Positions 14,156 through 30,991 of a stretch of 64,000 nt of DNA are shown in pieces. The stretch is taken from contig CAXXFF010000001.1 of the NCBI GenBank assembly GCA_963676835.2, positions 64,001-128,000 of the forward strand, given 5' to 3'. The number at the start of each line of letters is the position of its first letter. The stretch's first letter is position 1. Origin of the DNA: Marispirochaeta sp. GTDB taxonomy: Bacteria > Spirochaetota > Spirochaetia > JC444 > Marispirochaetaceae. Position numbers and translations under genes: made by a program. The notes beneath the pieces were generated by a model that did not search any database, was not told where the DNA came from, and saw nothing but the letters and a program-made list of their open reading frames with translations.

Positions 14156-15984
14156 ACAGGTCTGCCCCCACAGCCAATACGCCTCTGCTGAAAATGCGCA
14201 ATATTCATGTTTCCTATGGCTCTTTAAAGGCCTTGAACGGTGTGGACTTCGACCTCTACCGTGGAGAAATCCATGCACTTATGGGCGAGCACAGAGCAGG
14301 AAAATCCACCCTGGTAAAACTGCTCTCCGGCGCAGAAAAACGCGATCGGGGGGAAATATTCATAAAAGGTAAATCCTGCGGTCATCTTAGTCCGGAAAGC
14401 TCCATGAAGCATGGCATCGGCATTGTTTATCAGAATCTGATGGTCATACCGGATTTGAATACAATAGAGAATATCTTTTCTCCCAACCTGAAGATCAACA
14501 GATTCGGTCTCCTTGATCAACAGTCAATGCTCAAGACTACTGCATCCCTGCTGGAACGTCTGGACTGCCGTTTTGACTGCAGGATACCCCTTAACCGTCT
14601 GACAGTTGGTAATCAGCTTATGGTTGAGTTTGCCAGGGCACTTCGTATCAATCCTGCTATCCTGATTCTGGATGAAATTTCCAACAAGCTGACACCCCAG
14701 GAAATGAAAAGTGTCTACCGTATAATGTTTGATCTGAAACACAGCGGCACCAGCATTATCTACATCAGCCACGATATGGATGAGATTCAGCGAATTGCAG
14801 ACCGGGTCACAATTCTTAAAAACGGATACCGCAGAGAAACCGAAATGGTCCGCAACCTCAGTCAATTGCGACTGGTACAGATGACATATTCCTTTTCTGC
14901 AAAACAGGAAAGGCTTGATCAGCATGATGAAAGTTTTGCCCAGGTTAAAAAACATTTTGAAAGTGTCATACAGGACTTCCCCGCTGGAATTCTTCTAATC
15001 GATAGACAGAAAAAAGTTCAGCTTATGAATTTTGAAGCGGTGAATATAATCGGCCTTCCTCAAAAAAGATTTGAAGATTTTCCCATCTCCGATCTTTCCT
15101 TTCTGCGTGAACCGATGCTTTCGCAACTGATAGAGGCGATAGACAATCAGGAGCAGTGGTCTTCCGGTGAAACAGAAACAAGTGATGGTAAAAATCTCAG
15201 CCTGAAAACTTTTCCTATTCGCAACGATGAACAGCAGTTTATAGGAACTACCCTCCTCATTCAGGACGAATCTCTGACAAAATGTATTGATGACTACCTG
15301 ATTCAGACCGAGAAAATGGCCTCGGTTGCAGAAGTTGCGGTGGGGGTGGCCCATGAAATTAATAACCCTCTCTGCATAATCCAGAATTACATAGAGTTAA
15401 TACGGGGAAGAAACAGCGACGATGACACGTTGTTAAAAATAAGCAAGATAGAAAACGAACTGGAGCGTATAGTATCCATAATTTCCAGTCTTCTTTCGTT
15501 CAGCAGGATACAGGCACTGCCGGGAAACATGATTGATGTTGGTTCGGTATTGAATGAGGTACTGCTCCTGCTGGGCCATTCCCTGAATGACAAGCGGGTT
15601 GAGTTAGAGTGGAAACCACCCAGGACCGCCTACTATGTCGCAGGCAATGAGAATAAACTGAAACAGGTATTTATGAACCTTATTATGAACAGTCTTGAAG
15701 CAGTCCTGGATAGCGGCAGAATTGAGGTCAGGATTAAAAGTTCCAGAAGCAATGAATTCGTGGATATATTTATTCAGGACACTGGAGCCGGTATTCCCGA
15801 AGAAATTGCTGAAAACATTTTTAATCCGTTTTATACCACGAAAATAAGCAGAAAAAACAGCGGCTTAGGGCTGTCGATATGCAGGCATATAGTTGAGGAG
15901 CATAAGGGAACAATAGGCTTTAAAAGCACCCCGGGAGAATCTACGGTTTTTACTGTGAGGTTGCCTCTGGCGAGAACCTCTTAA
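14152..15984 (+). CDS. ABC-ATPase-like domain fused to PAS-like domain and histidine kinase
   Basis: N-term ALMGEHRAGKST...ILILDEIS...ISH (RbsA NBD1-like); C-term VAHEINNPL, QVFMNLIMNS, DTGAGI, FNPFYTTK, GLGLS; no TM segment seen. Confidence 0.88.
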   Translation: MNRSAPTANTPLLKMRNIHVSYGSLKALNGVDFDLYRGEIHALMGEHRAGKSTLVKLLSGAEKRDRGEIFIKGKSCGHLSPESSMKHGIGIVYQNLMVIPDLNTIENIFSPNLKINRFGLLDQQSMLKTTASLLERLDCRFDCRIPLNRLTVGNQLMVEFARALRINPAILILDEISNKLTPQEMKSVYRIMFDLKHSGTSIIYISHDMDEIQRIADRVTILKNGYRRETEMVRNLSQLRLVQMTYSFSAKQERLDQHDESFAQVKKHFESVIQDFPAGILLIDRQKKVQLMNFEAVNIIGLPQKRFEDFPISDLSFLREPMLSQLIEAIDNQEQWSSGETETSDGKNLSLKTFPIRNDEQQFIGTTLLIQDESLTKCIDDYLIQTEKMASVAEVAVGVAHEINNPLCIIQNYIELIRGRNSDDDTLLKISKIENELERIVSIISSLLSFSRIQALPGNMIDVGSVLNEVLLLLGHSLNDKRVELEWKPPRTAYYVAGNENKLKQVFMNLIMNSLEAVLDSGRIEVRIKSSRSNEFVDIFIQDTGAGIPEEIAENIFNPFYTTKISRKNSGLGLSICRHIVEEHKGTIGFKSTPGESTVFTVRLPLARTS

Positions 15985-16020
15985 CTGCCTGGAAACTCAG
16001 CAAAAACCTGTTTTTCCATC

Positions 16021-16929
16021 TTATTTGTCAGACTTCTTACTATCTATTCGTTCGACTTCCACCGGTAGTCTTTCCGGAGGATGTACCTCAAGCAGGCCGG
16101 ATCCTCTTCTATGAAAGAGGGACACTATTCCACAGTCCCATTTCAGATGCTTTCTAATATACAACTCCACATCATAACGCGTTCTATCGTGAAGTCCTCT
16201 ATGAACGGTAACGATTGTGTCGGTATGGTTTACTATCGGGCATATCCTATCCAGGGATTCAAGTGTTATATCCTGATCATAGGGGATCTCCGGAGGCAAT
16301 TCCAACGCAACAAGTATCGCACAATTATGTTCTCTTGCACTCTCCTGCAGAAGCCGAATCTTTTCTACAATATTTGTATCACGTACAGTCAAACCATCAA
16401 TAATAACAAGTTTTACATCCTGAATATCTTTCACAGGGTCTTCTGACCCGGGAGGTAAATAGTAGAACGCTTCACCAACCTCGGGCATAAACGGATTGTG
16501 AATCACATTAAAAGAATTGACGGAGATAACGGTCATGGGCGCACCAGCTATATGATTTGCTGCTTTCTCCAAGACCTCTTCATCATAATCACTGGCGGAA
16601 AACGGAATCCCTGCCAATTCCCGCACAAACAATTCTAATTGGTACTCTATATCCGAGTGGCTACTTACAAGGCTGACAGGTATACGCTTTAATACACTTA
16701 ATCGATACAGAATAGTCCTTAGAACCGTACTTTTACCCACCCTGGCTGCCCCAGCCAACAGGTGCAGCCCTGATTTAGTAAATCCACCGCCGAATGCTTT
16801 ATCGAGGGTTTTTAATCCGGTTCTTAAAAATGGAGTATATGAATCATCATCGATAGAATGCTGAATCCGCCGGACAGCTTCCTTAACAGCATCATCTATA
16901 TCGATATTCACAACACCATCTTTGCACAT
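16021..16929 (-). CDS. DnaB-like helicase C-terminal (RecA-fold) domain protein
   Basis: TGLKTLDKAFGGGF..SGLHLLAGAARVGKST, LVIIDGL, AREHNCAILV, TDTIVTVHR; lacks DnaB N-terminal domain; GGAGG RBS. Confidence 0.75.
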   Translation of the reverse strand: MCKDGVVNIDIDDAVKEAVRRIQHSIDDDSYTPFLRTGLKTLDKAFGGGFTKSGLHLLAGAARVGKSTVLRTILYRLSVLKRIPVSLVSSHSDIEYQLELFVRELAGIPFSASDYDEEVLEKAANHIAGAPMTVISVNSFNVIHNPFMPEVGEAFYYLPPGSEDPVKDIQDVKLVIIDGLTVRDTNIVEKIRLLQESAREHNCAILVALELPPEIPYDQDITLESLDRICPIVNHTDTIVTVHRGLHDRTRYDVELYIRKHLKWDCGIVSLFHRRGSGLLEVHPPERLPVEVERIDSKKSDK

Positions 16930-17113
16930 GGTTTACCTCCATTAATCTGAATTGAAAAACTACTGATCGCCTTAGGGTTAACGTTTCGGCAATAATCACC
17001 TGAATTTGCCGATAAAATGGTCTTTCGCTCTGCCGATATATCTTCGACAAATACTTTGCAGTCACTTCGCCATAAGCTGATTCTTTTCATGTTATAGATG
17101 TTATGTTCGGTCC

Positions 17114-17130
17114 ACGTCATATTATGTCGT
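17114..17130. promoter_or_regulatory. Candidate WYL operator 1
   Basis: ACGTCA-TATTA-TGTCGT between divergent DnaB-like and WYL genes; TAnnnT hexamers 10 bp (left) and 11 bp (right) away. Confidence 0.7.
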
Positions 17131-17171
17131 TTATATTTTTTTATTGTGCTTCCAGGTAAAATATAAGTACA

Positions 17172-18167
17172 ATGGGCGATATGAGTTTCAGAGCACAAAT
17201 AACCCGCATAAATTATATTGATCAACGTTTACGCAACATGAAAGACTACCCTTCCTCCAATCAGCTTCTTCAGGGGCTTCTGGATGCAACCGGTGAAACT
17301 GTCTGCAAACGAACAATGCAGCGGGATATTACCTGGATGCGGGATGAGGGTGCTCCTATAGAATATGACAGCCGCAACAGAGGCTATTACTACTCCCACG
17401 AAAACTGGCAGATGCCGGCCATCAGCATGACAGAAGGAGACCTGCTTGCACTTCTGGTGGCAGACCGGGCCTTGTCAGGTTACCGAAACAGCCCCTATTA
17501 CGATAAATTGAAGCAGGTTTTCGAGCGACTGACACACCTCCTGCCGGAGAAGGTAACGGTTGCCTCCGAGGACCTGGCAGCGGGTGTATCGGTTGTCAGC
17601 GATCCTGTTACTAGAATCTACCCGGAAATATGGGACCTGATTCGGGAAGGAATGGACAGCCGCAAATCGGTCGGCATACAGTACCAGAGCCCCGGGTATT
17701 CCGAAGCGGTGGAAAGGACTATCGACCCCCTGCATATCGTTGGCCACCGGGGCGAGTGGTATGTACTGGGCTGGTGCCACAGGAAGGAGCAGGTACGTAT
17801 CTATGCCTTTGCCAGAATCAAGTACTGCAAGGTAACCGGAAAATCATTTCAGCCGCCGGAAGGGTTTAAAGCGGAAAACTATATTGACCCAAACATCGGT
17901 ATTTTTGTCAGCGAAGAGTCTGTGGATATGCTTATCCGCTTTAAAAATGAGGCGGCGGTAAAAATTCAGGAACGGAGATGGCATCCGGACCAGCAGATTA
18001 CAAAAAACCCCGACGGCAGCATAACCCTATCCTTCAACACAAATCAGCAGTCTCAAATTCTCTTCTGGGTATCCCAGTGGGGACCGGATGCGGAGATTCT
18101 GAAACCTGAAGGGCTGCGGCAAAGAGCGAAGGAACGGTTTGAGGCGATGGCAGCGTTGTACAGGTAG
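17172..18167 (+). CDS. WYL-domain transcriptional regulator (HTH-WYL-WCX, DriD/PafBC-like)
   Basis: N-terminal HTH (CKRTMQRDITWMR...GYYY), RTIDPLHI..GEWYV.GWC...RIYAFARI, C-terminal WGPDAEILKPEGLR. Confidence 0.93.
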   Translation: MGDMSFRAQITRINYIDQRLRNMKDYPSSNQLLQGLLDATGETVCKRTMQRDITWMRDEGAPIEYDSRNRGYYYSHENWQMPAISMTEGDLLALLVADRALSGYRNSPYYDKLKQVFERLTHLLPEKVTVASEDLAAGVSVVSDPVTRIYPEIWDLIREGMDSRKSVGIQYQSPGYSEAVERTIDPLHIVGHRGEWYVLGWCHRKEQVRIYAFARIKYCKVTGKSFQPPEGFKAENYIDPNIGIFVSEESVDMLIRFKNEAAVKIQERRWHPDQQITKNPDGSITLSFNTNQQSQILFWVSQWGPDAEILKPEGLRQRAKERFEAMAALYR

Positions 18168-18176
18168 AATTTCAGC

Positions 18177-18270
18177 CTAGTCAACAGCCCAGCCTTCGAA
18201 TATGATAGCGTCTACTGATGTATATTCCCATTGATCATCACCATCCATATTGTTGAAAACAATCGGATCA
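18177..18270 (-). pseudogene. Duplicated 3' end of the 18986-19249 gene
   Basis: Encodes DPIVFNNMDGDDQWEYTSVDAIIFEGWAVD* vs DPIVIHNMDGDDQWEYTSVNAIIYDGWAVD*; 38-bp identical core. Confidence 0.9.
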
Positions 18271-18318
18271 ACAATAAAATAGTAATCCCTTATAATTAAT
18301 AATTGCTTGAAAAGCAGA

Positions 18319-18358
18319 CTCCGATGTGTATATTATAACCATTATATACACATCGGAG
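18319..18358. promoter_or_regulatory. vapBC autoregulatory operator
   Basis: Perfect 14-bp inverted repeat CTCCGATGTGTATA/TATACACATCGGAG overlapping the promoter and RBS. Confidence 0.75.
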
Positions 18359-18366
18359 GCAGGCAT

Positions 18367-18561
18367 ATGCGAACAAATATCGTGATTGATGATAGTTTAA
18401 TGAATCAAGCCATTGAATTATCCGGATATAAAACAAAGAAGGAAACTGTCGAAGAAGCATTACGTATGCTGATCAAATTCAAACAGCAGAATGCTATAAG
18501 ATCATTAAGGGGAAAATTAAAATGGGAAGGTGATCTTGATGCAATGAGAAATGATAAATGA
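18367..18561 (+). CDS. vapB: Type II TA antitoxin VapB
   Basis: MRTNIVIDDSLM...TKKETVEEALR...LRGKLKWEGDLDAMR; ATGA overlap with PIN gene. Confidence 0.92.
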   Translation: MRTNIVIDDSLMNQAIELSGYKTKKETVEEALRMLIKFKQQNAIRSLRGKLKWEGDLDAMRNDK

Positions 18562-18950
18562 TTGTTGTGGATACATCAGCCTGGATAGACTATTTTAACG
18601 GAAAAACAGCTCCTCATACAGATAGATTGGATAAAGATTTAGGAATAGAAAGAGTAATTATAGGAGATTTGATAATTACAGAATTACTGCAGGGATTTAA
18701 AAACGACACAGAGTATGGAATAGCCAAGAAATTATTAGAAAGTCTGGAATATAGAGATTTCGTAGGTAAAAAAATCGCAATCCAGGCAGCAGATAATTAT
18801 AGATATTTACGAAAAACGGGAGTAACTGTTAGAAAAACAATAGATGTTATAATAGCTACTTTTTGTATAGAAAATGAATACGAACTAATCCATAACGACA
18901 AAGATTTCGACCCATTTGAAGAATATCTCGGGTTAAAGATTAGAAATTAA
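18558..18950 (+). CDS. vapC: Type II TA PIN-domain toxin VapC
   Basis: IVVDTSAWIDY, ELLQG, TIDVIIA, HNDKDF. Confidence 0.94.
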   Translation: MIVVDTSAWIDYFNGKTAPHTDRLDKDLGIERVIIGDLIITELLQGFKNDTEYGIAKKLLESLEYRDFVGKKIAIQAADNYRYLRKTGVTVRKTIDVIIATFCIENEYELIHNDKDFDPFEEYLGLKIRN

Positions 18951-18985
18951 AAATCTTAGTCTGAGAGCTTAATCTGCCCGCCTGC

Positions 18986-19249
18986 TCAGTCGACAGCCCA
19001 TCCATCGTAGATGATGGCATTAACTGATGTATATTCCCATTGATCATCACCATCCATATTATGGATAACAATAGGGTCATCGGTTTTTCGGGTCATATAG
19101 GAAGGGTCGTTTTCTATATAGCCATAGATACGTCCATCGTCCTTTCGTTTCTTAAGAATGCATTTGGGCCCGGGGAAACCGCCATCAAGCATATCTTCCA
19201 GTGTTTTCCGGCTCATTTCAGTTAATTCATCAGACCAGCTATTTTTCAT
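18986..19249 (-). CDS. Hypothetical protein (87 aa)
   Basis: AAGGAG RBS; C-terminus conserved at amino-acid level in the duplicate at 18177-18270. Confidence 0.75.
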   Translation of the reverse strand: MKNSWSDELTEMSRKTLEDMLDGGFPGPKCILKKRKDDGRIYGYIENDPSYMTRKTDDPIVIHNMDGDDQWEYTSVNAIIYDGWAVD

Positions 19250-19305
19250 ATAAAATCTCCTTGTAATGTTTATTGCATCTGCCTACCAAAGAAGCATCCA
19301 TAGAT

Positions 19306-19611
19306 TCAAAACAGGCCCATCTGTTCATAGTGCCTTCGGTTCTTAGGTAATTCATCCATGTCCTCAGACCATCCTTCTTCATGCAGATCATCAACAATGT
19401 GCTGCAGTGCTGCAGCCCTGGACTCTTCGCCAAAGATTTTTACTGCTTCTTCAATACCGGAGAGATGATGCCGTACCTTTCGATGCCGCATTCCATATTC
19501 TTTGGAACCGGCGAATTCATCCAGCCATACATGTATTTCCGTATAGGGTTTGCCGAATTGTTCGATGCTGTGTTTTTCATGGTCAGAGAGCTTAATAATC
19601 AACCTCCACAA
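19306..19611 (-). CDS. His-rich small protein, probable metal-binding hydrolase-like family; start uncertain
   Basis: H..S...FG....IHVWLDE...RHRKVRHH...QHIVDDL; best RBS (GGAGG) precedes ATT at 19596, not ATG. Confidence 0.7.
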   Translation of the reverse strand: MWRLIIKLSDHEKHSIEQFGKPYTEIHVWLDEFAGSKEYGMRHRKVRHHLSGIEEAVKIFGEESRAAALQHIVDDLHEEGWSEDMDELPKNRRHYEQMGLF

Positions 19612-19658
19612 AGGTGTGATCCTCTAATACAAATCATTTTTAGTTTATTCACAGGTAT

Positions 19659-19675
19659 ACGACATAAATTGTCGC
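19659..19675. promoter_or_regulatory. Candidate WYL operator 2
   Basis: ACGACA-TAAAT-TGTCGC; TACTAT 11 bp to the right, TAAACT 11 bp to the left on the minus strand. Confidence 0.78.
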
Positions 19676-19742
19676 GGTCAGGGAATTACTATCTTTTTAT
19701 GAATATTGAATCATTCGAGAAAATGATGGTAGCGTTGCATAT

Positions 19743-20207
19743 ATGAAAACAGTTTTTAAACGAAAAAGACTACCCTACCATGGAGCCGGAGTGTTGATCT
19801 GGCGTGAAGGTAATAATGGTATTCCTGAAATCCTGTTAGGCAAACGATCACAGAATGTCGGACATGGAGCCGGGAAATGGAGTACTTTCGGCGGCAAACA
19901 GGAGCGCCACGAAAGCGTTTACCGGTGCGCTATGCGGGAAGCAGCGGAAGAGACCGGCCTGCAATCTGAGGTTCTATTGGATCAGGAATTCTTTATCTTC
20001 AACCCGCGACCTTTTAAGAAAAGGACTATCCCTTTTGTCTATTCATTTACCTACTACTCCTGCGAAGCTATAAAGGCGCCGAAGGGATGGCCGCGCAAAA
20101 ACCGGGAACACACTGAAATAGGCTGGTTTTCTGTACAGCAACTGCCGGAGCCGCTTCACAGGGAAGCTCGGAGGGTAATAAAACGATGGATAAGAAACAA
20201 CAAATAA
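19743..20207 (+). CDS. Nudix hydrolase
   Basis: GGKQERHESVYRCAMREAAEETG Nudix box. Confidence 0.92.
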   Translation: MKTVFKRKRLPYHGAGVLIWREGNNGIPEILLGKRSQNVGHGAGKWSTFGGKQERHESVYRCAMREAAEETGLQSEVLLDQEFFIFNPRPFKKRTIPFVYSFTYYSCEAIKAPKGWPRKNREHTEIGWFSVQQLPEPLHREARRVIKRWIRNNK

Positions 20208-21139
20208 AAGGCGGCATCCTTGGACTTGCTGTCGGTGATGCCCTGGGGGTACCGGTAGAGTTCAGCAGCAGAGAAGCGCGTGACATGGCCCCGGTTACGA
20301 CCATGCAGGGATGGGGTACTCACAATCAACCGCCGGGGACCTGGTCGGATGATACATCCATGGCACTTTGCGTACTTGAGTCAATTATCGAAAATGAATG
20401 GGACTTTGAGGACCAAGGAGAGCGTTTTACTCGCTGGCTTGATAATGCTCATCTTACTGCGCACGATGAAGTGTTTGATGTCGGGATTGCAACAACCAAA
20501 GCGATAAATCGGCTCCGCACCGGAACGCCGGCGGCTCAGGCCGGAGGCGACAGCGAATATTCCAACGGGAACGGTTCCTTAATGCGGAATCTTCCCGCCG
20601 CCATCTATTGTTCCCTTTCTGTAACAGATGAAGAGCTGGTGACTATGATCGGCGAGTCCTCATCCATTACCCATGCCCATCCCCGCAGCCGACTGGGTTG
20701 TATTATCCATGCTATTATTGTATCAGAGCTGCTTCAGAGCAGGGATATTATGCAGGCTGTCGAACAGTCCCGAAAGCGCCTGGATGTTCTCATAGAGCGT
20801 AATATTCTGATGGATGATCTGAAACAGGAACTTTCGGCATATGGTCGCCTGCTAAATAGCAATATCCATATTCTTGAACGCCATGAGATTTCATCATCAG
20901 GCTACGTTGTCTCCACGCTGGAAGCGGCTGTCTGGTGCCTGGCAACCAGCAGTTCCTTTGAAGAGTGCCTGTTAAAGGCAGTCAATCTGGGAGATGACAC
21001 CGATACCGTAGGAGCCGTTGCCGGGGGGCTTGCCGGGCTCTATTGGGGAATAGAGGGTATTCCGGCAGAATGGCTTGAGGCTTTGGCAAAGGGCGAGATA
21101 ATTTTCTCAATGGTTGAGTGGTTTATCGGGTTGGTTTAG
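20186..21139 (+). CDS. ADP-ribosylglycohydrolase (DraG/ARH family)
   Basis: GDALGVPVEF, WSDDTSM, GNGSLMR, SITH, AVNLGDDTDT. Confidence 0.95.
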   Translation: MDKKQQIKGGILGLAVGDALGVPVEFSSREARDMAPVTTMQGWGTHNQPPGTWSDDTSMALCVLESIIENEWDFEDQGERFTRWLDNAHLTAHDEVFDVGIATTKAINRLRTGTPAAQAGGDSEYSNGNGSLMRNLPAAIYCSLSVTDEELVTMIGESSSITHAHPRSRLGCIIHAIIVSELLQSRDIMQAVEQSRKRLDVLIERNILMDDLKQELSAYGRLLNSNIHILERHEISSSGYVVSTLEAAVWCLATSSSFEECLLKAVNLGDDTDTVGAVAGGLAGLYWGIEGIPAEWLEALAKGEIIFSMVEWFIGLV

Positions 21140-21406
21140 CAGTTTTTCAGGGTTCCCCACCCTTGCGAACAGTCTGTCTGCTAAAGTAATTGCAGGCAGC
21201 TTTCATTCTGCAGACCGGTCCGCAGTTCGGGCGGAAGATTCGTTTGTACTCTTCAACTGTGTAGACACTGAAGTTCACATCAGTAATGTCCCACGAATTA
21301 TACAGCTTCTTATAATTCCCGCCGCTATACACTTTTTTGGCTCTTCGGACTTTCCGGTTTGCCATTTGTTTATGCAGCTTCCTTCCTCTTTGTTTAGGGA
21401 ATTTGA
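20645..21406. repeat. Direct repeat copy 1 (762 bp) of 24106-24867
   Basis: Colinear at constant offset 3461 bp, scattered substitutions; covers ARH 3' half and small convergent ORF. Confidence 0.95.
21147..21365 (-). CDS. Small basic hypothetical protein, copy 1 (5' region cut by primase fragment)
   Basis: MANRKVRRAKK..GGNYKKLYNSWDI; near-identical to 24608-24826. Confidence 0.55.
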   Translation of the reverse strand: MANRKVRRAKKVYSGGNYKKLYNSWDITDVNFSVYTVEEYKRIFRPNCGPVCRMKAACNYFSRQTVRKGGEP

Positions 21407-21990
21407 TGGCTGAAAGTCTTGATTCAGGAATACAGAATGATTTTTCTCCCTGGCTCTTTTCTGCAATGGGAGAGCAATGAGATTCCCGGATCCTCCCTTG
21501 GGGAGGGTATCCTGATTGGGAAAGAAACGGTCGAATGAGTCCAGCCCTATTTCCGGTCGCTGGTCCAGGGATTTCGTTAATAAGGCGGATCCCAGACTCC
21601 GAGCCAGCCGGGCCGAAACGACTTCATCAAAGAAGATCCAGATATGTCCGCCGTTGCCGGATCTCGACCGTTCCAGATAGGCCGGGATTCCTTCTGTCTC
21701 ACAGGTTTTCATAAAAGCCGCTGTATCCTGCTCCCAATTCTCTTTGTCAAAATCCAAAGCCAGGAAATAACAGGTTTCATCCGGTAGAAGCGGATAAATC
21801 CCCATAACAAAGGGCTGAGGTTCCCCTTTTGGATAGGTGGATGGAGATTCTCCTTTCAGATGATAGGATATGATTTCGTTTGTTACGGGCAGAAACTGTC
21901 TATTGGAACAGACGGCACATTTTACTTCCGGTTTTCCACAAAGCCCCGGCTGCCATTCGTTTATACGGGGCGTTTTGGCCGGCTTCTTTT
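21407..21990 (-). pseudogene. Internal fragment of an archaeo-eukaryotic-primase (TOTE-type) domain gene
   Basis: GIYPLL.DETCYFLALDFD, ERSRSGNGGHIWIFF, SFDRFFPNQD..PKGG.GNLIALPLQ; no own start, ends at the repeat junction without the usual helicase part. Confidence 0.75.
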
Positions 21991-22004
21991 CTTCAACATC
22001 ACTT

Positions 22005-22535
22005 CTATTCTTCTTCTGCGTCCTCATAATGTTCATATACAAGACTCGCGATTTCATCATGAAACCCCCAGCCTATGCCTTCGGTTTCATCTATAAAACC
22101 GAAACACTGATCCTTGTATTTCTTCAGCAGGTCATTTTCACTTATATGCACAAGAAACCGTTCCAATGATTTTACAATATTTTCGTAAAACCGTTCATCA
22201 ATGTCTCCGTATTCATTGGTAAAATCTATTCCGCATCTGACATGTGTAAAAAGAAGTTCTGCCATGTAACCGGAATCTTTTGATATTTTATTGAATTTTG
22301 TAATGGCCTCTCGGATATTAGCATACCGAAGCTTACCTAATCCCTTTTCAGGGAAGAATTCATCGATAATCTGCTTTTTGTATTTCTGAAAGATAATATC
22401 AGGATTTGTATAACCGTAGCTCTCATCAAGAATTTCTTTGGCAAGTGGGACTTTTCTGTATAAATCTATGATTATTGCCATCAATTCGTTTTTTTGCATG
22501 GAGTTTATTTCTTTCTTTAATTCTCTTATTCCCAT
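22005..22535 (-). CDS. Hypothetical alpha-helical protein (DUF6155-like)
   Basis: YKKQIIDEFFP, FTNEYGDIDERFY, GIGWGFHD pattern. Confidence 0.7.
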   Translation of the reverse strand: MGIRELKKEINSMQKNELMAIIIDLYRKVPLAKEILDESYGYTNPDIIFQKYKKQIIDEFFPEKGLGKLRYANIREAITKFNKISKDSGYMAELLFTHVRCGIDFTNEYGDIDERFYENIVKSLERFLVHISENDLLKKYKDQCFGFIDETEGIGWGFHDEIASLVYEHYEDAEEE

Positions 22536-22536
22536 T

Positions 22537-23601
22537 TTATTCCTTTTCAGCCTTCTTTTTTTCTATCATCTTTTTGATTTCCTTATCGAAATCAGATTCG
22601 ATCTTCTGGATTTTATTAAATTCATCATACTCGGAATAGGCTTTTTTCTCAGCAATTCTGTGAGAAACAGATCCTTTCCCTTCAAGAATCCTGTACTCAT
22701 TAAAATCAAGGAATTTGTTCACTGATTCTGTTAAAGATTCCATGGTAAAAGTAGTTCTGTTTTCGATAAGCCGTTCAATATAATCAAAATAACCGGTTAT
22801 AGCCCGTTCCAGCTTTTTAATCTCATCTTCTTTAAGGTAATTCTTTGCAACAACTGTGTCAGATTTGAGGATACGCCCGTCAGGAGCATTCTTCCATGTT
22901 GTCATTCCCATAAAAGGCTTGTCTTTATCGGCTTTAGAATGCACAATTTCTGCAGATGTCTGGCCAGTAATTGCGAAATGAAATTTATTCTGGATCATTG
23001 CATAGAATGATTTAGTAATATCCGATTTCGGGTCATAGTCAATGGTACATTCAGCAAAAATATCAGTAATCTGCTGATATATTCGCCTTTCACTGCTGCG
23101 AATTGAGCGGACTCTTTCAAGTAACTCTTGGAAATAATCCTGACCAAAGAAACGGCCGTTCTTTAGCCGTTCATCATCCATAACAAAACCTTTGATAATA
23201 TATTCCTTTAGGGTGTTAGTCGCCCAAATACGGAATTGTGTGGCTTGTCGAGAATTTACTCTATAACCCACAGAAAGCACAGCATCAAGATTAAAGTATT
23301 TGACTAGTTTTTTTTGAGTTTTACCCTCTATTGCACCATGCTGAGTGGTATTTTCCAAAATGGAAACAACCACTTTTTCATCAAGTTCCCCACTTTCAAA
23401 AATGTTCTTCAGGTGTTTAGATATAGCGGCTATACCAACTCCGAACAGTTCGGCCATTCGCTTTTGAGTCAACCAGATCGTCTCATTATTGAGAAAGACT
23501 TCTACCTTTACATTTCCGTCGTCAGCGGTATATAACAGGAATTCAGTAAGTTCGTCTCTTGTAGAGAGTGGCTTTTTTCGTTCTTTACCCATCAGATACA
23601 A
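22537..23601 (-). CDS. rhuM: RhuM-family (virulence RhuM) protein
   Basis: ETIWLTQKRMAELFG, YFNLDAVLSVGYRVNS..ATQFRIWAT, DYFQELLERVRSIRSSERR. Confidence 0.92.
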   Translation of the reverse strand: MYLMGKERKKPLSTRDELTEFLLYTADDGNVKVEVFLNNETIWLTQKRMAELFGVGIAAISKHLKNIFESGELDEKVVVSILENTTQHGAIEGKTQKKLVKYFNLDAVLSVGYRVNSRQATQFRIWATNTLKEYIIKGFVMDDERLKNGRFFGQDYFQELLERVRSIRSSERRIYQQITDIFAECTIDYDPKSDITKSFYAMIQNKFHFAITGQTSAEIVHSKADKDKPFMGMTTWKNAPDGRILKSDTVVAKNYLKEDEIKKLERAITGYFDYIERLIENRTTFTMESLTESVNKFLDFNEYRILEGKGSVSHRIAEKKAYSEYDEFNKIQKIESDFDKEIKKMIEKKKAEKE

Positions 23602-23861
23602 CCTCCTGAACAGGATCCTATGGTGATGTTATTATGTTGAACTGTTTCCATTTTAGAAATAGTTGCTTCCCGGTTGAGTTGCCCCTCTTCGAATATGTTT
23701 TTCAAGTGCTTTGATATTGCGGAAACATTAACCCCGAAAAGTTCAGCCATTGCATTCTGGTGGTGCCAGATAGTTTCATTTTGTAAGATAGTATCGACTT
23801 TGTTGTCGCCTTCCGGGGTGGTGTACAGGAGTATTTGGGATTGGGTGGAATGTTCCTTCAT
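23592..23861 (-). pseudogene. Truncated second RhuM N-terminus
   Basis: ILLYTTPEG...NETIW...MAELFGV..SAISKHLKNIFEEG.L..EATISKMETV then similarity stops. Confidence 0.8.
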
Positions 23862-24105
23862 GGATTCTTTTCCTATTGCCCTTCACTTTCCTTAATCACT
23901 TTGCTTAGCACGGCACGGACTTGGTGCGATTCGATAAGCACCAATGGATTCCTGGGCGCGGGGATTGTAAGACTGTATTTGTTTATTTATATCATATATT
24001 TAACCAGATAGACACGGAGTTGCCTATAATGTTCCGCGAATATACGAGGTTGGCAGAAGGCAAATTTGGTTAAAGTAAAGCAGATCGGATGACAATCTGG
24101 CAACG

Positions 24106-24600
24106 ATGATCAGCGAGACTTCATCCATTATTCACGGCCAGCCCCGCAGCCGGATGGGTTGTATTATCCATTCTTTTATTGTATCAGAACTGCTTCAGAG
24201 CAGGGATATTATGCAGGCTGTCGAGCAGTCCCGAAAGCGCCTGGATGTTCTCAAAGAGCGTAATATTCTGATGAATGATCTGCAACAGGAACTTTCGGCA
24301 TATGGTCGCCTGCTAAATAGCAATATCGATATTCTTGAACGCCATGAGATTTCATCATCAGGCTACGTTGTCTCCACACTGGAAGCGGCTGTCTGGTGCC
24401 TTGCTACCAGCGGTTCCTTTGAAGAATGCCTGTTAAAGGCAGTCAATCTGGGAGATGACACCGATACCGTAGGAGCCGTTGCCGGGGGGCTTGCCGGGCT
24501 CTATTGGGGAATAGAGGGTATTCCGGCAGAATGGCTTGAGGCTTTGGCTAAGGGCGAGATGATTTTCTCAATGGTTGAGAGGTTTATCGGGTTGGTTTAG
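24106..24600 (+). pseudogene. 5'-truncated ADP-ribosylglycohydrolase copy
   Basis: C-terminal 164 aa near-identical to 20186-21139; N-terminal catalytic motifs absent. Confidence 0.9.
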
Positions 24601-24607
24601 CAGTTTT

Positions 24608-24826
24608 TCAGGGTTCCCCACCCTTGCGAACAGTCTGTCTGCTAAAGTAATTGCAGGCAGCTTTCATTCTGCAGACCGGGCCGCAATTCGGGCGGAAGAT
24701 TCGTTTGTACTCTTCAACGGTGTAGACACAGAAGTTCACATCAGTAATGTCCCACGAATTATACAGCTTCTTATAATTCCCGCCGCTATAACCTTTTTTG
24801 GCTCTTCGGACTTTCCGGTTTGCCAT
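24608..24826 (-). CDS. Small basic hypothetical protein, copy 2 (frame extends upstream to a TGA near 24914)
   Basis: Upstream in-frame SKTWKKYPSVKFPKQRGRKLQKQ lacks an ATG; AAGGAGG-ATG at 24943 is in frame but hits TGA at codon 10. Confidence 0.55.
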   Translation of the reverse strand: MANRKVRRAKKGYSGGNYKKLYNSWDITDVNFCVYTVEEYKRIFRPNCGPVCRMKAACNYFSRQTVRKGGEP

Positions 24827-24997
24827 TTGTTTTTGCAGCTTCCTTCCTCTTTGTTTAGGGAATTTGACAGATGGGTATTTTTTCCAGGTCTTGCTGTTTT
24901 TTCTAACTCCGTATCAGGTTGTTAGAAACAGGGCATATTTCATGCAGGACCTCCTTTGTGGGTTTGTTTGCTATGATTGGATGGTAGCATTTTTAGG

Positions 24998-25014
24998 GCG
25001 TCATGGGATGTCGC
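24998..25014. promoter_or_regulatory. Candidate WYL operator 3
   Basis: GCGTCA-TGGGA-TGTCGC; on the minus strand TACCAT lies 11 bp downstream, then AAGGAGG-ATG. Confidence 0.7.
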
Positions 25015-25262
25015 TGGTTATGAATGAATTCTCTATAGTGGTACGGTTTATAGGACTATGTCGCAGGTATGAAGTATTCCTGATAGATATTCTTGTACCA
25101 ATACGAGGCATAACTTGATACCCACTTATATCAAGTAAATAGAAAAAATAGGCGAAAACACCTAAAGTGCGTCACACCTTGCCATCAACACAAAACTACA
25201 CCACATATAGTGCCTACACCCAGAATAGCCCAATGATGCGCAAATGGGCGAAAACACAGTAT

Positions 25263-25840
25263 CTATTCGCTAGATACACTCCAAAACGGAACATACGATG
25301 TATCCCTTCTTGATTCGGATAAGCTAGAGTTGATTATCAGTCCAGCTCCAACCGTAGAGTTAATCACCCTGGTCACGATCGATCCTTTATCTTCTGGTAG
25401 TCCAAACCGCTCTCGTAAGCTTTTATTTGTCATCTTCTCTCTATTCACAAACTGTAGACATGCATGAAGGTAACAAGCCCGGATGCGGTCATCTTTGTTC
25501 ATTTCATCAAAATCTAAAGGCGCAAACAAGGTTGCCTTTGTAAAACCATTCGGGATTTCAAATAATGGTGCTGGTAACTGGAAAAGCTCCGTTTGGTAAA
25601 CAACCTTATCTATTCCACTTCCGCGCTCTTCACAAATCCCGAAACGCCTCATCAAGGAGGCCAACTTCTCGTTTCGTGATTTAGGCGGACTATCAAGAAA
25701 TCGTTGAGTCTCTATCAAGGGACTACCAGGATTGGTTATCTCAATACGATCATCAAATATTTCGATCATAGGTCCTGTCCCATGCTCAAAGAAATCTTGA
25801 TGAATAACAGCATTTGCAATCAATTCTCTCACTGCCAATT
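25263..25840 (-). pseudogene. C-terminal fragment of an ATP-binding/RecG-C-terminal-like (HATPase_c_4) regulator, cut by IS3
   Basis: AVRELIANAVIHQDF, DDRIEITNPG, SRNEKLA..MRR.GICEERGSG; frame begins at the IS end. Confidence 0.85.
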
Positions 25841-25897
25841 TGGAATTCCCCCAAAATTGTCGACACCTGTTATGCTTAGAATCTAAGGAGAAATCAG

Positions 25898-26185
25898 GTG
25901 TCTAAGAGTCCATATTCGGAAGAATTTAAGGCAGAAACTATCAAGCAAATCATGGAAGAAGGCGTTGGCGTTTTGGCTGTTGCCAAGGCAACCGGTGTTA
26001 GCGACGTCACCTTATACAAGTGGCTCAAAGTTGCCGGGTGGAAATCAGGCGAGTCAAAAGACAAAAAGAAAATTACTGAAGCTGACCAGGAAATAAAGGC
26101 GCTTAAGGCAGAGCTTAAGCAGGTCAAAATGGAGCGTGACATCCTAAAAAAGGCCGCAGCGTACTTTGCCGGGGAGTCCCTGTAA
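25898..26185 (+). CDS. IS3 transposase OrfA
   Basis: YSEEFKAE, HTH, ERDILKKAAAYF; AAAAAAG slippery site at 26146-26152. Confidence 0.93.
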   Translation: MSKSPYSEEFKAETIKQIMEEGVGVLAVAKATGVSDVTLYKWLKVAGWKSGESKDKKKITEADQEIKALKAELKQVKMERDILKKAAAYFAGESL

Positions 26186-26223
26186 AGTACGCATTTATCA
26201 AAGAACATCGTAGCACTTACCCG

Positions 26224-27042
26224 GTGCGACAGATGTGCAGGGCCATGAAAGTCCATCCATCAGGCTTCTATCGGTGGATTAAGAACCCAGAATCCAAACG
26301 AGCCATCCAAAACCGGGTAATAACCCAAGAGATCCGCCATTATTGGGAAGAAAGTGGAGGCACTTACGGAAGTCCCAATATTCATCAGGATTTCAAGGAG
26401 GCTGGCTATTCTTACAGTGTTAACCGTATTGCGCGACTTATGAAAGAAGCAGGTATACAGGGTGCTCACCGCCGCAAAAAGCATCCTTACATTCCTCCAG
26501 AAGGACCTGTACACAGTCTTAATCAGCTCAATCGTGAGTTCACTGTTAGCGATCCTAATCGTGTCTGGTGTATCGACATAACATATATTCGAACCTGTGA
26601 GGGCTGGCTGTACCTGGCAGTTGTCATAGATCTGTTCAGCAGGCGAATAGTTGGATGGTCTATGAAGAGTAACCAGAAAACAGCCTTGGTCATGGATGCT
26701 TTGTTTATGGCAGTCAAACGAAGACGGCCAAAACAGACAGTTCTAATTCACTCCGATCAAGGTACCCAGTTCACCAGCTATGAATGGGATAGCTTCTGTG
26801 AGTTCCACAATTTGGATCCGAGTATGAGTCGAAGAGGCAATTGCTGGGATAATGCCGTTGTTGAATCCTTCTTCTCCAGCTTGAAAAAAGAACGGGTAAA
26901 GAAAAAAATCTACAAAAACAGGGAGGTAGCACGCAAAGATATTTTCAATTACATAGAGTTATTTTACAATCCTAAAAGGCGGCATAGCCATTTGGACCGT
27001 CGAAGTCCGGCTCAATTCGAAGCTATGTATTTAACCCCGTAA
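26224..27042 (+). CDS. IS3 transposase OrfB (DDE)
   Basis: WCIDITYI, HSDQGTQF, GNCWDNAVVESFF, YNPKRRHS. Confidence 0.95.
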   Translation: MRQMCRAMKVHPSGFYRWIKNPESKRAIQNRVITQEIRHYWEESGGTYGSPNIHQDFKEAGYSYSVNRIARLMKEAGIQGAHRRKKHPYIPPEGPVHSLNQLNREFTVSDPNRVWCIDITYIRTCEGWLYLAVVIDLFSRRIVGWSMKSNQKTALVMDALFMAVKRRRPKQTVLIHSDQGTQFTSYEWDSFCEFHNLDPSMSRRGNCWDNAVVESFFSSLKKERVKKKIYKNREVARKDIFNYIELFYNPKRRHSHLDRRSPAQFEAMYLTP

Positions 27043-27103
27043 AGTGTCGACAGAATCGGGGGAATTCCATGCCGCATATTCGACATATGTTTAAACCAGA
27101 GCA

Positions 27104-27256
27104 TTACATGTCTCTCGTATAACGATTCTGTTCACCATTTCGGCAAACATTGCAAAGCCGCAGTTTGTCGTCCTTGCCGTCTTTGATACGAATAACAACC
27201 GCCCGACATTCCGGATTTGAGCAAATATACTTAATCAGATTCGGGTTATTTTTCAT
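27104..27256 (-). CDS. 50-aa zinc-ribbon-like protein (not in ORF track)
   Basis: MKNNPNLIKYICSNPEC...LCNVCRNGEQNRYTRDM*; overlaps upstream gene end. Confidence 0.55.
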   Translation of the reverse strand: MKNNPNLIKYICSNPECRAVVIRIKDGKDDKLRLCNVCRNGEQNRYTRDM

Positions 27257-27473
27257 GAGCCGGAATCCTCAATATGCCGGAGTCTATTAACTCCTGTAGT
27301 CGCTCTGCATCTGATAGCAATCGCTCCCGTTGGGAACGCTTATCTCTGCCCTCTTTTCGAGTGACCCATTCTTCAAATGCAATAAGCCCGAAAGCTGAGC
27401 GTAATTTTTCAGACGGAATATACCGTGCTGCCCTGTTCCATAGTTCGTCCGGTACCTGGAATTGAATTATCAA
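27246..27473 (-). CDS. Hypothetical protein (possible RHH-like DNA binder)
   Basis: GGAGG RBS; beta-strand-helix-helix pattern IIQFQVPDELW. Confidence 0.55.
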   Translation of the reverse strand: MIIQFQVPDELWNRAARYIPSEKLRSAFGLIAFEEWVTRKEGRDKRSQRERLLSDAERLQELIDSGILRIPAHEK

Positions 27474-27610
27474 AACGTCCTCCCTATCCGTTTTTTCGTA
27501 CTGCTTACCGGTACTTATTCGCTTTTCCTGTTTTCATTACAGGCCTGTACCGGATTACTTGCACACAGGGCTTATTGTTTGCCTGTCGTGCCTGTATTCT
27601 TCAATTTCTT

Positions 27611-28117
27611 CTATTGTTCCGGATTATTCTTCTTTTTCTTATGCGCACCTCCTTTCTCCCATCCGTATTTTAATGGGTTTTCCAAGATCCAAAGGTGACG
27701 CATGTTTGCAACATTCACGACATCACAATTCTTTGGATAGACTTCTATTGCATACTTATCACCACGACCCACCTGATCTTTAATTTGCTGAAGTTGTTCC
27801 CAGGTTAGCCGGTCAATATATTCAAGTTGAGTATTATATTCGGTACGACATATAGAGAGACGCTCAACATTCTCAGGTTCTTCGAAAACCTGTACTATAT
27901 ATTTTCTCGAATGCCAGACTTCTTTAAGGACTCGAGGTCCTTTCTTCCTCATAGCATCAGGCCATTCAGGTTTTGGTATTAAAGAAAGATTGTGTGGCCG
28001 AAGAGTATTTTCTCTACTGACAGCTTTCTTGTATTGTCTCCGTTGTTCACGGTTCATATTCTTTATGTTTGTTTTATTCTTCATTTTCTCTATCAACCTC
28101 CGATTCCCGGTTTTCAA
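27611..28117 (-). CDS. Phage-type hypothetical protein
   Basis: LTWEQLQQIK..VG.GD.YAIEVYP...VVNVANMRHLW pattern typical of a phage family. Confidence 0.75.
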   Translation of the reverse strand: MKTGNRRLIEKMKNKTNIKNMNREQRRQYKKAVSRENTLRPHNLSLIPKPEWPDAMRKKGPRVLKEVWHSRKYIVQVFEEPENVERLSICRTEYNTQLEYIDRLTWEQLQQIKDQVGRGDKYAIEVYPKNCDVVNVANMRHLWILENPLKYGWEKGGAHKKKKNNPEQ

Positions 28118-28298
28118 TAAATGCGATTATTCCAAACACTAAAAGTCCTACCACGACTGCACCGACGCATCCACCAATAGACGCCCAGAAGCCAAACAGA
28201 AACGGGTTCATATTTCCTCCACTGAGGTTCGCCGGAAGGCAACCATTCTTTTTTCGCTTGAAGAATTTACTTCTCCACAACGGCCGTATTTTTTGCAT
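28074..28298 (-). CDS. Small membrane protein (likely start at MNPFLFG)
   Basis: Single hydrophobic helix; GGAGG before internal ATG. Confidence 0.5.
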   Translation of the reverse strand: MQKIRPLWRSKFFKRKKNGCLPANLSGGNMNPFLFGFWASIGGCVGAVVVGLLVFGIIAFIENRESEVDRENEE

Positions 28299-28393
28299 CT
28301 GTTAGCACCGTCCTTCTTAATCCGGTAAGAACAGTTTCGTCCGTCACCACAATTTCCGCCGCCAAGATAATAGATACACTTCGATTCGCTCAT
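28208..28393 (-). CDS. Small Cys-rich hypothetical protein
   Basis: 61 aa, five Cys, ATGA coupling to upstream gene. Confidence 0.5.
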   Translation of the reverse strand: MSESKCIYYLGGGNCGDGRNCSYRIKKDGANRCKKYGRCGEVNSSSEKRMVAFRRTSVEEI

Positions 28394-28665
28394 GCCGTAC
28401 CCCGTAACCGCTCAACCTTGTCGCATTTCTGAATTATCATGTGTGCATAATTGGCGATGTCAGCCGCTTCCAACCTGATTAGATCGGTGTCCTGGTGGTG
28501 ATTGTCTATTTCTTTTTCCAGCTCATTAAGCTCTTCCTGTAGCATGACAAAGAGCTGCCCGAACGAAAGGTTATTCCATCCTCCTTTCTCTTCATTCATT
28601 TTCAGCTTAACCAGCTGGGCTTGGTTGCCTGCTTTAAGCAGTTTTTCATAATTCCGCTTTTCCAT
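28390..28665 (-). CDS. MazG-like nucleotide pyrophosphohydrolase-like protein
   Basis: LQEELNELEKEI...EAADIANYAHMI acidic motif. Confidence 0.6.
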   Translation of the reverse strand: MEKRNYEKLLKAGNQAQLVKLKMNEEKGGWNNLSFGQLFVMLQEELNELEKEIDNHHQDTDLIRLEAADIANYAHMIIQKCDKVERLRGTA

Positions 28666-28826
28666 TCATTACTCCATAAATTGTATTTATCCATAATGCG
28701 AAGCATGGCCATATTCTCCGCGCGCGTTCTTTTCATTCCGCCGTCATATTCCATAATGGCGGCGCGTTCTTCGAGCTCTTCACGGTATCGCGGATACCGT
28801 TCAAGAAACTCGGTATACGTCATCAC
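28602..28826 (-). CDS. Phage-type hypothetical protein
   Basis: EERAAIMEYDGG.R..AE motif seen in phage proteins. Confidence 0.6.
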   Translation of the reverse strand: MMTYTEFLERYPRYREELEERAAIMEYDGGMKRTRAENMAMLRIMDKYNLWSNEWKSGIMKNCLKQATKPSWLS

Positions 28827-29797
28827 TCGTTGGTCCCTGATGATTCTCTTTTCGTTAACCGCTTTTCAAAATCGGGGATTTCTTCAAGTTTCACTGTTGT
28901 ATGGATGTACATGTCCGCGGTTAACTCTGTTTTTGCATGTCCGAGGTAGTCGCTTACTGCTTTCAGGTCTTTTCCGTTCTGCAGCATCATCATGGCAAAG
29001 GAATGCCGGAATACATGAGGCCCGATCTTGCGGTTTATAATGTCGACTGATAACTCTTGTATCTTTTTATAGATAAACTTGCGGTCAAGAATGGTCTTGT
29101 CCCGGGTGCAGAAAAGATAGTCATGCCCCTGATACAGTCTTTCTATACGGGTCCATAGGCTTTTAGTTATCTGAACATGCCGCTCTTTGTTGCCTTTTCC
29201 GGTAACGACAATATCAACGAAATCATCATGTACTGTTGCTGCGCTCCGCCGGCAGTTGGTCAGCTCAGATACCCGGCAACCAGTTGTAATAAGAAAAAGG
29301 ATAATCGCCTGAGTGTGCCTGTCTGCTTTTTTAAGAAATACGTCTACCTCATCCGGTGTCAGGTATCGCTCTCGCGGAATGCGCTTCGTCTGGATCCGCT
29401 TGGTTTTGATAGAGCGAAAAAGCCGGTCAATGAAGAATTGATCAAGACGGCTCCAGCGTTCCGGATTCTGTGCAATCAGTTCAGCAACTATCTTTTTAAC
29501 TGCACATTTTTTCCGGTTAAGTGTTTGGGCCCGTTCATCTGCAGCCGCCGCCAGCTCTATATACTGGATCAGGCTCAAGAGCGTGAACGGTCTGTTGAAT
29601 GCCTCAAGGTAGCTGATGATATGTGTATTGGTTGGAAGGTAGCTACCGAAGATCCGACTATTGAGTAGAAACCCCTGAACCTGCTCTAACGGGAAGATTT
29701 CCTGTTCCAGGCTACTGATATGCCTGATATCCTCCCCCATGGGCTCTAAATAGACAGAAGATTGATTCTGTATATTATTTTCTGTCGTTTTATTCAC
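28823..29797 (-). CDS. Tyrosine recombinase (XerC/D-like)
   Basis: TGCRVSEL, GKGNKER, PHVFRHSFA, YLGH, MYIH. Confidence 0.93.
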   Translation of the reverse strand: MNKTTENNIQNQSSVYLEPMGEDIRHISSLEQEIFPLEQVQGFLLNSRIFGSYLPTNTHIISYLEAFNRPFTLLSLIQYIELAAAADERAQTLNRKKCAVKKIVAELIAQNPERWSRLDQFFIDRLFRSIKTKRIQTKRIPRERYLTPDEVDVFLKKADRHTQAIILFLITTGCRVSELTNCRRSAATVHDDFVDIVVTGKGNKERHVQITKSLWTRIERLYQGHDYLFCTRDKTILDRKFIYKKIQELSVDIINRKIGPHVFRHSFAMMMLQNGKDLKAVSDYLGHAKTELTADMYIHTTVKLEEIPDFEKRLTKRESSGTNE

Positions 29798-30827: not shown

Positions 30828-30991
30828 TCAGAACATTTCAGTGTATGTATTCTTGTTTTGAGCTCTACGAACATCGGTGTAAGTTCAGAAGCAGGCTTTT
30901 TCTCCATGACCGATTTTCGCTGAATTGATGCCATATCATCGATGTATTGATACAATGCGTTTATTCCCTGGCTCATTGTGTAATCCTGCAA
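30797..30991 (-). CDS. Hypothetical protein
   Basis: ORF tightly packed in the operon. Confidence 0.5.
   Translation of the reverse strand: MQDYTMSQGINALYQYIDDMASIQRKSVMEKKPASELTPMFVELKTRIHTLKCSECREGQACRK

Follow-up and report, generated by a model that had tools for sequence, protein, structure and literature searches.

The palindrome CGWCA-N5-TGWCG has been described as the site of DdaA, a WYL activator of Acinetobacter and other Moraxellaceae, on the basis of electrophoretic mobility-shift assays (EMSA), ChAP-seq and reporters (PMC12392091). As reported in that paper, DdaA and five homologues bind the box in EMSA, the box is needed for activation, and pre-Moraxellaceae DdaA regulated genes of unknown function near its own locus; both box and activation are confirmed in PMC13010146. 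DriD occupies the -35 position, at a constant spacing from the -10 hexamer (PMC13004042), and the motif given for PafBC is tGTCgg-N10-tA-N3-T (PMC8635444). A further group of predicted counter-ADP-ribosylation systems, outlined in section 3.8 of PMC9503650, is centred on ARG (ADP-ribosylglycohydrolase), which occurs there with WYL or Nudix regulators and R-P phosphatases. Here we describe a WYL protein encoded in a stretch of 64,000 nucleotides from Marispirochaeta sp. (contig CAXXFF010000001.1, positions 64,001 to 128,000; hereafter the window), together with the three DdaA-type boxes that accompany it. In our view it is very probable that regulator, box and activation form a real system of the DriD/DdaA type, and the complete account, in which the protein is an activator of this type with a local accessory regulon, is likely to be correct.

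Boxes and linked hexamers in the window

The regulator gene, the boxes and the -10 hexamers linked to them are as follows.

17181..18167, forward strand: wHTH-WYL-WCX regulator, 328 aa (Pfam WYL and WCX; alternative ATG at 17172)
17114..17130, no strand: box 1, ACGTCA-TATTA-TGTCGT, DdaA-type (pattern scan, matrix)
17098..17103, reverse strand: -10 hexamer TAACAT, 11 nt from the box 1 core (offset scan, matrix)
17142-47, forward strand: box-linked TATTGT, a candidate promoter of the WYL gene, overlapping TTGTGC-18-TACAAT (17144-73)
19659..19675, no strand: box 2, ACGACA-TAAAT-TGTCGC, the top matrix score in the genome
19642..19647, reverse strand: -10 hexamer TAAACT, 12 nt from the box 2 core (offset scan, matrix)
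19687..19746, forward strand: -10 hexamer TACTAT with a 15-codon leaderless open reading frame (ORF; 19699-19746) overlapping the Nudix start
24998..25014, no strand: box 3, GCGTCA-TGGGA-TGTCGC, in a single direction only (pattern scan, matrix)
24981..24986, reverse strand: -10 hexamer TACCAT, 12 nt from the box 3 core (offset scan, matrix)

The dyad RCGWCA-N5-TGTCGY is found at 17114, 19659 (on both strands) and 24998, against an expectation of 0.03, and none of 100 shuffles gave the four matches. The three intergenic dyads of the original prediction are real, and a scan of all 4,429,379 bases (4.43 Mb) of the genome returned these three exact sites and none outside the window. The looser CGWCA-N5-TGWCG has six sites genome-wide, and the three that lie outside the window are without TAnnnT at an offset of 11-12. 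All five hexamers stand at the predicted spacing of 10-11 bp: measured from the 17-mer, four lie at 11 nt and the fifth at 10 nt, which corresponds to 12 and 11 nt from the 15-nt core. In these box-bearing intergenic stretches the TAnnnT background is 2.8% per position. Since the dyad pattern was derived from the same sites, these chance figures are post hoc, and the independent check comes from orthologue loci.

A matrix trained on 33 orthologue-locus promoters ranks the five directions of the window 1-5 in the genome (20.3-27.2 bits), the next site scoring 15.9. Generic sigma70 and terminator scans yielded chance-level matches only, and an Rfam search of 15900-25300 gave no match. Among the pieces listed, contigs from a single DNA run, which may be that of the source sample, showed no variant letters over 15900-24313 and 24838-25300.

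The regulator and its promoters in orthologue loci

An alignment of 54 close WYL homologues led to 39 loci, of which 37 (367,559 bases) were used, duplicate L047 and distant L050 being dropped. The recurrence of the motif at homologous WYL loci, which the original prediction proposed as a check, was borne out: there are 13 exact boxes in these loci versus 2.45 in shuffles (20 shuffles). Of 112 directions, 23 have TAnnnT 12 nt after the box; no other offset is represented more than three times. At the genome level, box, 12 nt and TAnnnT occur together in 12 of 25 orthologue-bearing genomes (14 matches; reversed control 4) and in three of 40 relatives chosen irrespective of a WYL gene (3 matches; control 9). 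The complete genome G066, with one orthologue, has eight such composite promoters across 576 kb (control 0), which indicates that the regulon can work at a distance; the congeners G002 and G003 have none. An ATG lies at +6/+7 after the hexamer in 22 of the 33 composite promoters, compared with 255 of 6418 for any TAnnnT. A -35 element was sought at the same 33 promoters, and in every case the best match was 3/6 or less.

The offset of 12 and the missing -35 agree with the predicted WYL activator placed just upstream of the -10, and the promoter sequences likewise favour bidirectional use and the DnaB-like, DUF6915 (the His-rich ORF of the prediction) and Nudix genes as targets. By comparison, these promoters give good support to an activator of the DriD/DdaA type whose regulon is local. 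The module is not fixed and self-contained as had been claimed: the ADP-ribosylglycohydrolase (ARH), 87-aa and basic ORFs occur in none of the orthologue loci searched, and the eight promoters of G066 are spread over 576 kb. The promoter rule itself (box, 12 nt, -10, 6-7 nt, ATG) is highly exact and finds co-regulated, uncharacterised genes without expression data.

Orthologues of the regulator in Spirochaetota share 46-64% identity with it, and HTH_11 was matched on many of them. A genome scan with the single WYL sequence found no relative; the homologue alignment did. Complete LexA and DnaB genes are both present elsewhere in the genome. The WYL gene is in none of five congeners (E 1e-20), and no WYL relative was found in the viral contigs searched.

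The original prediction also had the WYL gene activating itself. The spacing of TATTGT is correct for this, but the gene has its own sigma70-like promoter, TTGTGC-18-TACAAT-7-ATG17181, and among 29 orthologous WYL genes 16 likewise have a sigma70-like leaderless promoter (score at least 8/12, ATG 6 nt after the -10), which makes self-activation doubtful. Box-driven and box-independent expression of the gene are both possible from the sequence. DdaA itself is described as not induced in A. baumannii and as self-regulated in basal lineages (PMC12392091).

Two arginines four residues apart, R44 and R48, lie in the HTH of the window protein. Residues Y168, R178, Y192 and R204 of DriD, which contact single-stranded DNA (ssDNA) as described in PMC9186387, align, as we read the profile comparison, with the invariant Y168, R179, Y194 and R206. 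By analogy with DriD, ssDNA is a reasonable expectation for the ligand, held with less assurance than the regulator type.

Two clades (support 0.985) make up the tree of WYL orthologues. The clade of the window protein is present in all 14 loci that have CG-type promoters, and the sister clade is found in six of eight loci with GG-type promoters (GGACA-N5-TGTCC). Sister-clade regulators with such promoters occur in L026, L035, L046, L025 and L016, and in L026 five of these promoters lie within 3 kb after the WYL gene. In L003 (G023) a TGACA-N5-TGTCA dyad separates the gene of a more distant WYL protein (37%) from a GDSL gene, after which comes DUF6915. Two regulator clades with differing boxes would make a natural pair for studies of specificity. 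Box, geometry, enrichment, co-variation and cargo are all properties shown by the sequences compared.

For binding, activation and ssDNA sensing we rely on the DriD and DdaA work. On that model, the 17181 protein would be a homodimer that binds a damage ligand, most likely ssDNA. The ligand-bound dimer would occupy CGWCA-N5-TGWCG in the place of a -35 element, 11-12 nt before a sigma70 -10, and recruit RNA polymerase to otherwise weak promoters, many of whose transcripts would begin at the ATG. The regulon of the window would be local accessory cargo carried by an island linked to tRNA-Met, next to an intact LexA system; it would comprise a degenerate DnaB domain, DUF6915, the 87-aa ORF, Nudix-ARH and a basic gene that is probably dead. 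Throughout Spirochaetota this promoter would serve shifting cassettes of one to three genes (phosphatase, tandem AAA ATPase, DUF6915, DnaB/DnaA-like proteins, uracil-DNA glycosylase (UDG), nucleases), which together resemble a damage- or invader-induced clean-up and defence response.

Box-linked genes, insertions and cargo

The genes that follow the boxes in the window are listed below.

16021..16929, reverse strand: DnaB C-terminal-domain-only protein, 302 aa, degenerate, no N-terminal domain (Pfam, alignment)
16908..17090, reverse strand: 60-codon ORF starting 7 nt after TAACAT, a leaderless position
18986..19249, reverse strand: 87-aa acidic ORF, a singleton (matches only itself among near-length proteins)
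19306..19611, reverse strand: DUF6915, His/Arg-rich helical protein (Pfam, alignment; start TTG 19611 or ATT 19596)
19743..20207, forward strand: Nudix hydrolase (Pfam NUDIX, 1.8e-17)
20186..21139, forward strand: ADP-ribosylglycohydrolase (ARH/ARG), 317 aa (Pfam, 2e-81)
24608..24943, reverse strand: 9-codon mini-ORF with a strong ribosome-binding site (RBS), hairpin over a second RBS (24901-24927), then the basic gene

Each hexamer had been predicted to point at a gene start. That claim has to be amended: TAACAT and TACTAT first meet the 60-codon and 15-codon ORFs, and TACCAT leads to the 9-codon mini-ORF and then to a basic gene without a start. The DnaB-like start lies 161 nt past the ATG (17090) of the 60-codon ORF; this ORF may not be a real gene, and it has no homologue in the orthologue loci or in PHROGs. 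The 15-codon ORF (ATG 19699, 6 nt after TACTAT) has a stop that overlaps the Nudix start.

The DnaB-like protein scores 25.1 bits against Pfam DnaB_C, under the cut-off of 27, and 0.98 as DnaB-like in the Atlas. Aligned with the full host DnaB it retains Walker A and the Walker B Asp, but key helicase motifs are lost: changes affect the positions that we take to be the catalytic Glu, the Gln sensor, the ssDNA loop and the Arg finger. It does not match a replicative DnaB helicase, the N-terminal domain and these motifs being missing. No close relative was found among 1.84 billion representatives; the relatives that we report came from a profile search, tblastn having missed them. A single-sequence fold model reached pLDDT 39, and a complex model with the C-terminal part of the host DnaB scored 0.00, which is uninformative either way.

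The model of DUF6915 is a confident helical bundle (pLDDT 89), with a best Z of 5.5 and no Foldseek match at E 0.001 in the PDB or viral libraries. One start candidate is an ATT located 6 nt after GGAGG, where homologues have ATG (19596-19611, reverse strand). We note 27 phage records with DUF6915 homologues, including Streptomyces phage NootNoot (L095, 79742-85323), in which the gene has a Ro60/TROVE gene on one side and a tRNA cluster on the other. The 87-aa ORF falls in unnamed, mostly viral Atlas clusters (0.94, low recognition), and neither it nor the basic ORF matches a Pfam family. For the ARH, the identities Tri1 and DraG were rejected with both models below cut-off. Two more ARH genes, one 60% identical and the other distant, lie at G000:C1:345498-347713, flanked by RhuM fragments and with no box.

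The basic gene (MSKTY/WRK type) is without its homologues' start codon in the window. The homologues, from two genomes and one viral contig, all have the same hairpin over the RBS followed by ATG; no ATG follows the hairpin in the window, so box 3 may drive a dead gene. In the family (MSKTY/WRK...ANK.VRR...YNSWDI) the hairpin TTCTAAC...GGAGTTAGAA over the RBS is seen in three lineages (L081, L082, L150). It is a possible translational control element and is not in Rfam; its folding z-scores are weak (-1.3 to -1.9), and only one of 76 loci with the hairpin pattern encodes a gene of the family.

Several blocks lie within or between these genes.

18179..18270, reverse strand: left edge of insertion 1, a 92-bp copy (85%) of the 87-aa gene's 3' end
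18367..18950, forward strand: inserted VapB-VapC toxin-antitoxin pair without a box; it has a sigma70-like promoter of its own
20627..21406, no strand: 780-bp direct repeat, copy 1, spanning the 3' half of the ARH and the 3' part of the basic gene
21407..24087, reverse strand: insertion 2, box-free, with a fragment of an AEP-TOTE primase, DUF6155 and a RhuM-family gene plus fragment
24088..24867, no strand: 780-bp direct repeat, copy 2 (95% to copy 1)

The direct repeats of 92 and 780 bp flank the VapBC and AEP/DUF6155/RhuM blocks, and the box unit was thus probably about 4.7 kb before the two insertions. The basic-gene piece in repeat copy 1 lacks promoter and 5' end. Pfam also reports a second ARH half in the window. 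Each insertion (18179-19079; 20627-24867) is flanked by a diverged duplicate of a gene 3' end, a pattern as from circle integration through shared sequence. Both insertions (VapBC; AEP/RhuM) had escaped the original prediction, as had the start codon missing from the basic gene and the catalytic motifs missing from the DnaB-like protein, and the clone that it proposed (16021-21365) does not contain box 3. In run X1, contigs over the unique stretch 18222-20758 have a depth of 22.7-23.7 versus 14.3-16.8 on the flanks, which may hint at amplification between the repeats and is not a copy number.

Genes for IS3, integrase, ParB and methylase occupy a stretch beside tRNA-Met, and the unit stands at its far end. 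The region 25840-32000 appears as an integrated-element remnant: it holds an IS3 element, of which contig C3 has four more identical copies, as well as integrase, ParB, a DNA methylase and tRNA-Met. A truncated HATPase/RecG-C gene lies at 25263-25838. No att-like repeat of the tRNA-Met 3' end was found in the window, and G002 shows no simple empty site.

The partners in the 37 loci are a DSP-type phosphatase (14), a tandem AAA ATPase (9), DUF6915 (5), DnaB_C-only proteins (4) and Nudix (1). ARH occurs in none of them, and the 87-aa, 60-aa and basic ORFs had no match in the orthologue loci searched. Conversely, the two commonest partners, phosphatase and tandem AAA ATPase, are missing from the window. 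Further box-linked genes encode a DnaA-like ATPase, UDG (2), a PD-(D/E)XK nuclease, SHOCT membrane proteins, Mrr nuclease with Schlafen helicase and, in L023, a DnaE-like protein; RtcB is divergent from the box in L045. The degenerate DnaB relatives in L045 and L023 also lack Walker A, and that of L026 is internally deleted. Among nine non-own, strongly matching DUF6915 loci found without a WYL query, a clear box lies within 1.5 kb in L096 and L098, L101 has one at offset 11 (by eye), L108 has one farther upstream and the others have none, so that DUF6915 is not always under the box. We infer the function of the cargo; DUF6915, the DSP phosphatase, the tandem AAA ATPase and the degenerate DnaB domains are testable candidates for damage or anti-phage genes.

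Alternative explanations and comparison with known systems

Several observations weigh against an activator with a local accessory regulon. One-mismatch boxes are not enriched in the orthologue loci (56 versus 61.3 in shuffles), and 17 of the 37 loci, many of them short contigs, have no box promoter. The matrix sites were selected with the same consensus, which makes the ranking of the window partly dependent. A second WYL gene is present elsewhere in the genome. The switch of box with clade is a single split on the tree, that is, one evolutionary event; exceptions are the CG matches in G046 and G053, the GG matches in G042, and L034 and L045 with a single GG-type site apiece. The control for the GG-type scan gave five matches. 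R207 of DriD is Ala in the window protein and R176 is unconserved, so that the ligand may differ from that of DriD. No recA, ssb or uvr gene was found among the annotated targets (53 proteins scanned). PADLOC recognised no named system in the cargo, only generic WYL, Nudix, AAA and PrimPol matches; the original prediction had not recognised the gene set as a named system, but WYL+ARG+phosphatase neighbourhoods are in print as predicted systems (PMC9503650).

The same regulator and box could instead respond to broken RNA or an ADP-ribose product, with the regulon acting as a kit for cleaning up RNA ends and ADP-ribose (phosphatase, Nudix, ARH, RtcB). Such an arrangement would recall the ARG associations with WYL or Nudix regulators and R-P phosphatases of PMC9503650 (section 3.8), and would suit the DSP phosphatase as the commonest partner (14/37 loci), RtcB beside the box in L045, RlaP downstream of basic-gene homologues (one or two cases), the phage DUF6915 between Ro60/TROVE and a tRNA cluster, and a ligand choice altered by R207->Ala. 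It is nevertheless rather unlikely in our view: ARH is in 0/37 loci, the window has no phosphatase, RtcB was noticed in a single locus, the four ssDNA residues of DriD are invariant, the other cargo is DNA-centred (UDG, DnaB/DnaA-like, Mrr, Schlafen helicase), and PMC9503650 treats WYL as a repressor. An elaboration of the ssDNA-sensing activator, a plug-in defence regulon, is also unlikely when taken whole. One ssDNA sensor would serve exchangeable one-gene cassettes, each with its own 40-nt box/-10/ATG promoter; a recurring class of them would be replication brakes built from broken replisome look-alikes (catalytically dead DnaB C-terminal domains with the linker helix, a DnaA-like ATPase, DnaE-like genes), which would interfere with the loading of phage or host helicase as ssDNA accumulates; and a one-base change in the box would insulate the regulator clades.

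Repressor-type WYL proteins (CapW/BrxR-like) exist, which cover their promoters until released. That the 17181 protein is one of them, released by ssDNA, would fit the overlap of the box with the -35 region and the island context, but no usable -35 lies under or beside the box at any of the 33 promoters, while WCX architecture, box sequence and spacing fit the activators DriD, DdaA and PafBC; we consider this improbable. Equally improbable is a decaying relic with inherited boxes and mostly non-working targets. Two insertions, the start-less basic gene, fragments, a nearby IS, the DnaB-like protein without close relatives and the missing WYL gene in five congeners (E 1e-20) are what decay would leave, yet the reading frames of WYL, DUF6915, Nudix and ARH are unbroken, top scores are retained in all five promoter directions, and the degenerate DnaB domains are again long open frames in L023 and L045. 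The presence of LexA and a second WYL gene, with a pattern drawn post hoc, could suggest chance dyads or sites of another regulator; this is extremely improbable, as all three sites are within 8 kb of the WYL gene with none elsewhere, and the promoter tracks the orthologue across genomes and shifts with the clade.

The DriD/DdaA-type activator remains the most consistent interpretation, and its mechanism is already known. We have not found described the spirochaete cargo, the leaderless one-gene cassettes, the sister clade with GG boxes or the recurring broken DnaB domains. Our literature search, which left most subscription papers outside, returned no paper on a spirochaete WYL regulon and no publication on DUF6915. 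A search of the supplement of PMC12392091 found no mention of spirochaetes, DUF6915 or Nudix; such loci may appear in the paper's tree and neighbourhood figures.

With the ARG-centred systems the window shares ARG with a WYL regulator, Nudix nearby, and phosphatases and nucleases as variable partners. ARG is their core and WYL their repressor, whereas here WYL and promoter form the core and ARG is rare cargo. Identity was rejected, ARH being in 0/37 orthologue loci where ARG would be the conserved core. TY-chaperone, vWA and ARPP were not among the proteins scanned, nor was a phosphatase, chaperone or transferase among 22 window proteins scanned. The window resembles these systems, but ARG is not its core and its promoter geometry speaks for an activator.

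PafBC of mycobacteria resembles the window in the GTC triplet read by two HTH arginines and in the tGTCgg-N10-tA-N3-T geometry; it is a heterodimer that uses a half site and has a global regulon, whereas the window has a palindrome and one gene. DriD of Caulobacter shares a box at the -35 position, set at a constant distance from the -10, without a -35, a bidirectional site at the driD gene and Y168/R178/Y192/R204. In the printed promoters we read about 11 nt from TGTCG to the -10, compared with 12 in the window, whose box-to-hexamer spacing is one base longer than in DriD and PafBC. DriD differs in its targets and in R207, and the similarity is remote (profile E 2e-17). The original prediction had likened the site to those of DriD and PafBC; the activator type is upheld, but the box is the published DdaA box and not a new one.

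DdaA shares the wHTH-WYL-WCX architecture and the identical CGWCA-N5-TGWCG. Its HTH arginines R47/R51 parallel R44/R48, as compared from the published description and not from sequence, and it too is reported with one Arg-to-Ala change, whose position could not be mapped. DdaA binds about 50 bp upstream of where transcription begins, whereas the box centre in the window precedes the predicted start by about 32 nt. DdaA is a global regulator of the DNA-damage response (recA, ssb, uvr, CRISPR), whereas the window has accessory cargo with LexA present; the global, LexA-replacing regulon that marks the DdaA clade is not seen here, the boxes being only local. PMC12392091 does not settle which genes DdaA-type regulators govern outside Moraxellaceae, and the window and its relatives give a concrete answer for Spirochaetota.

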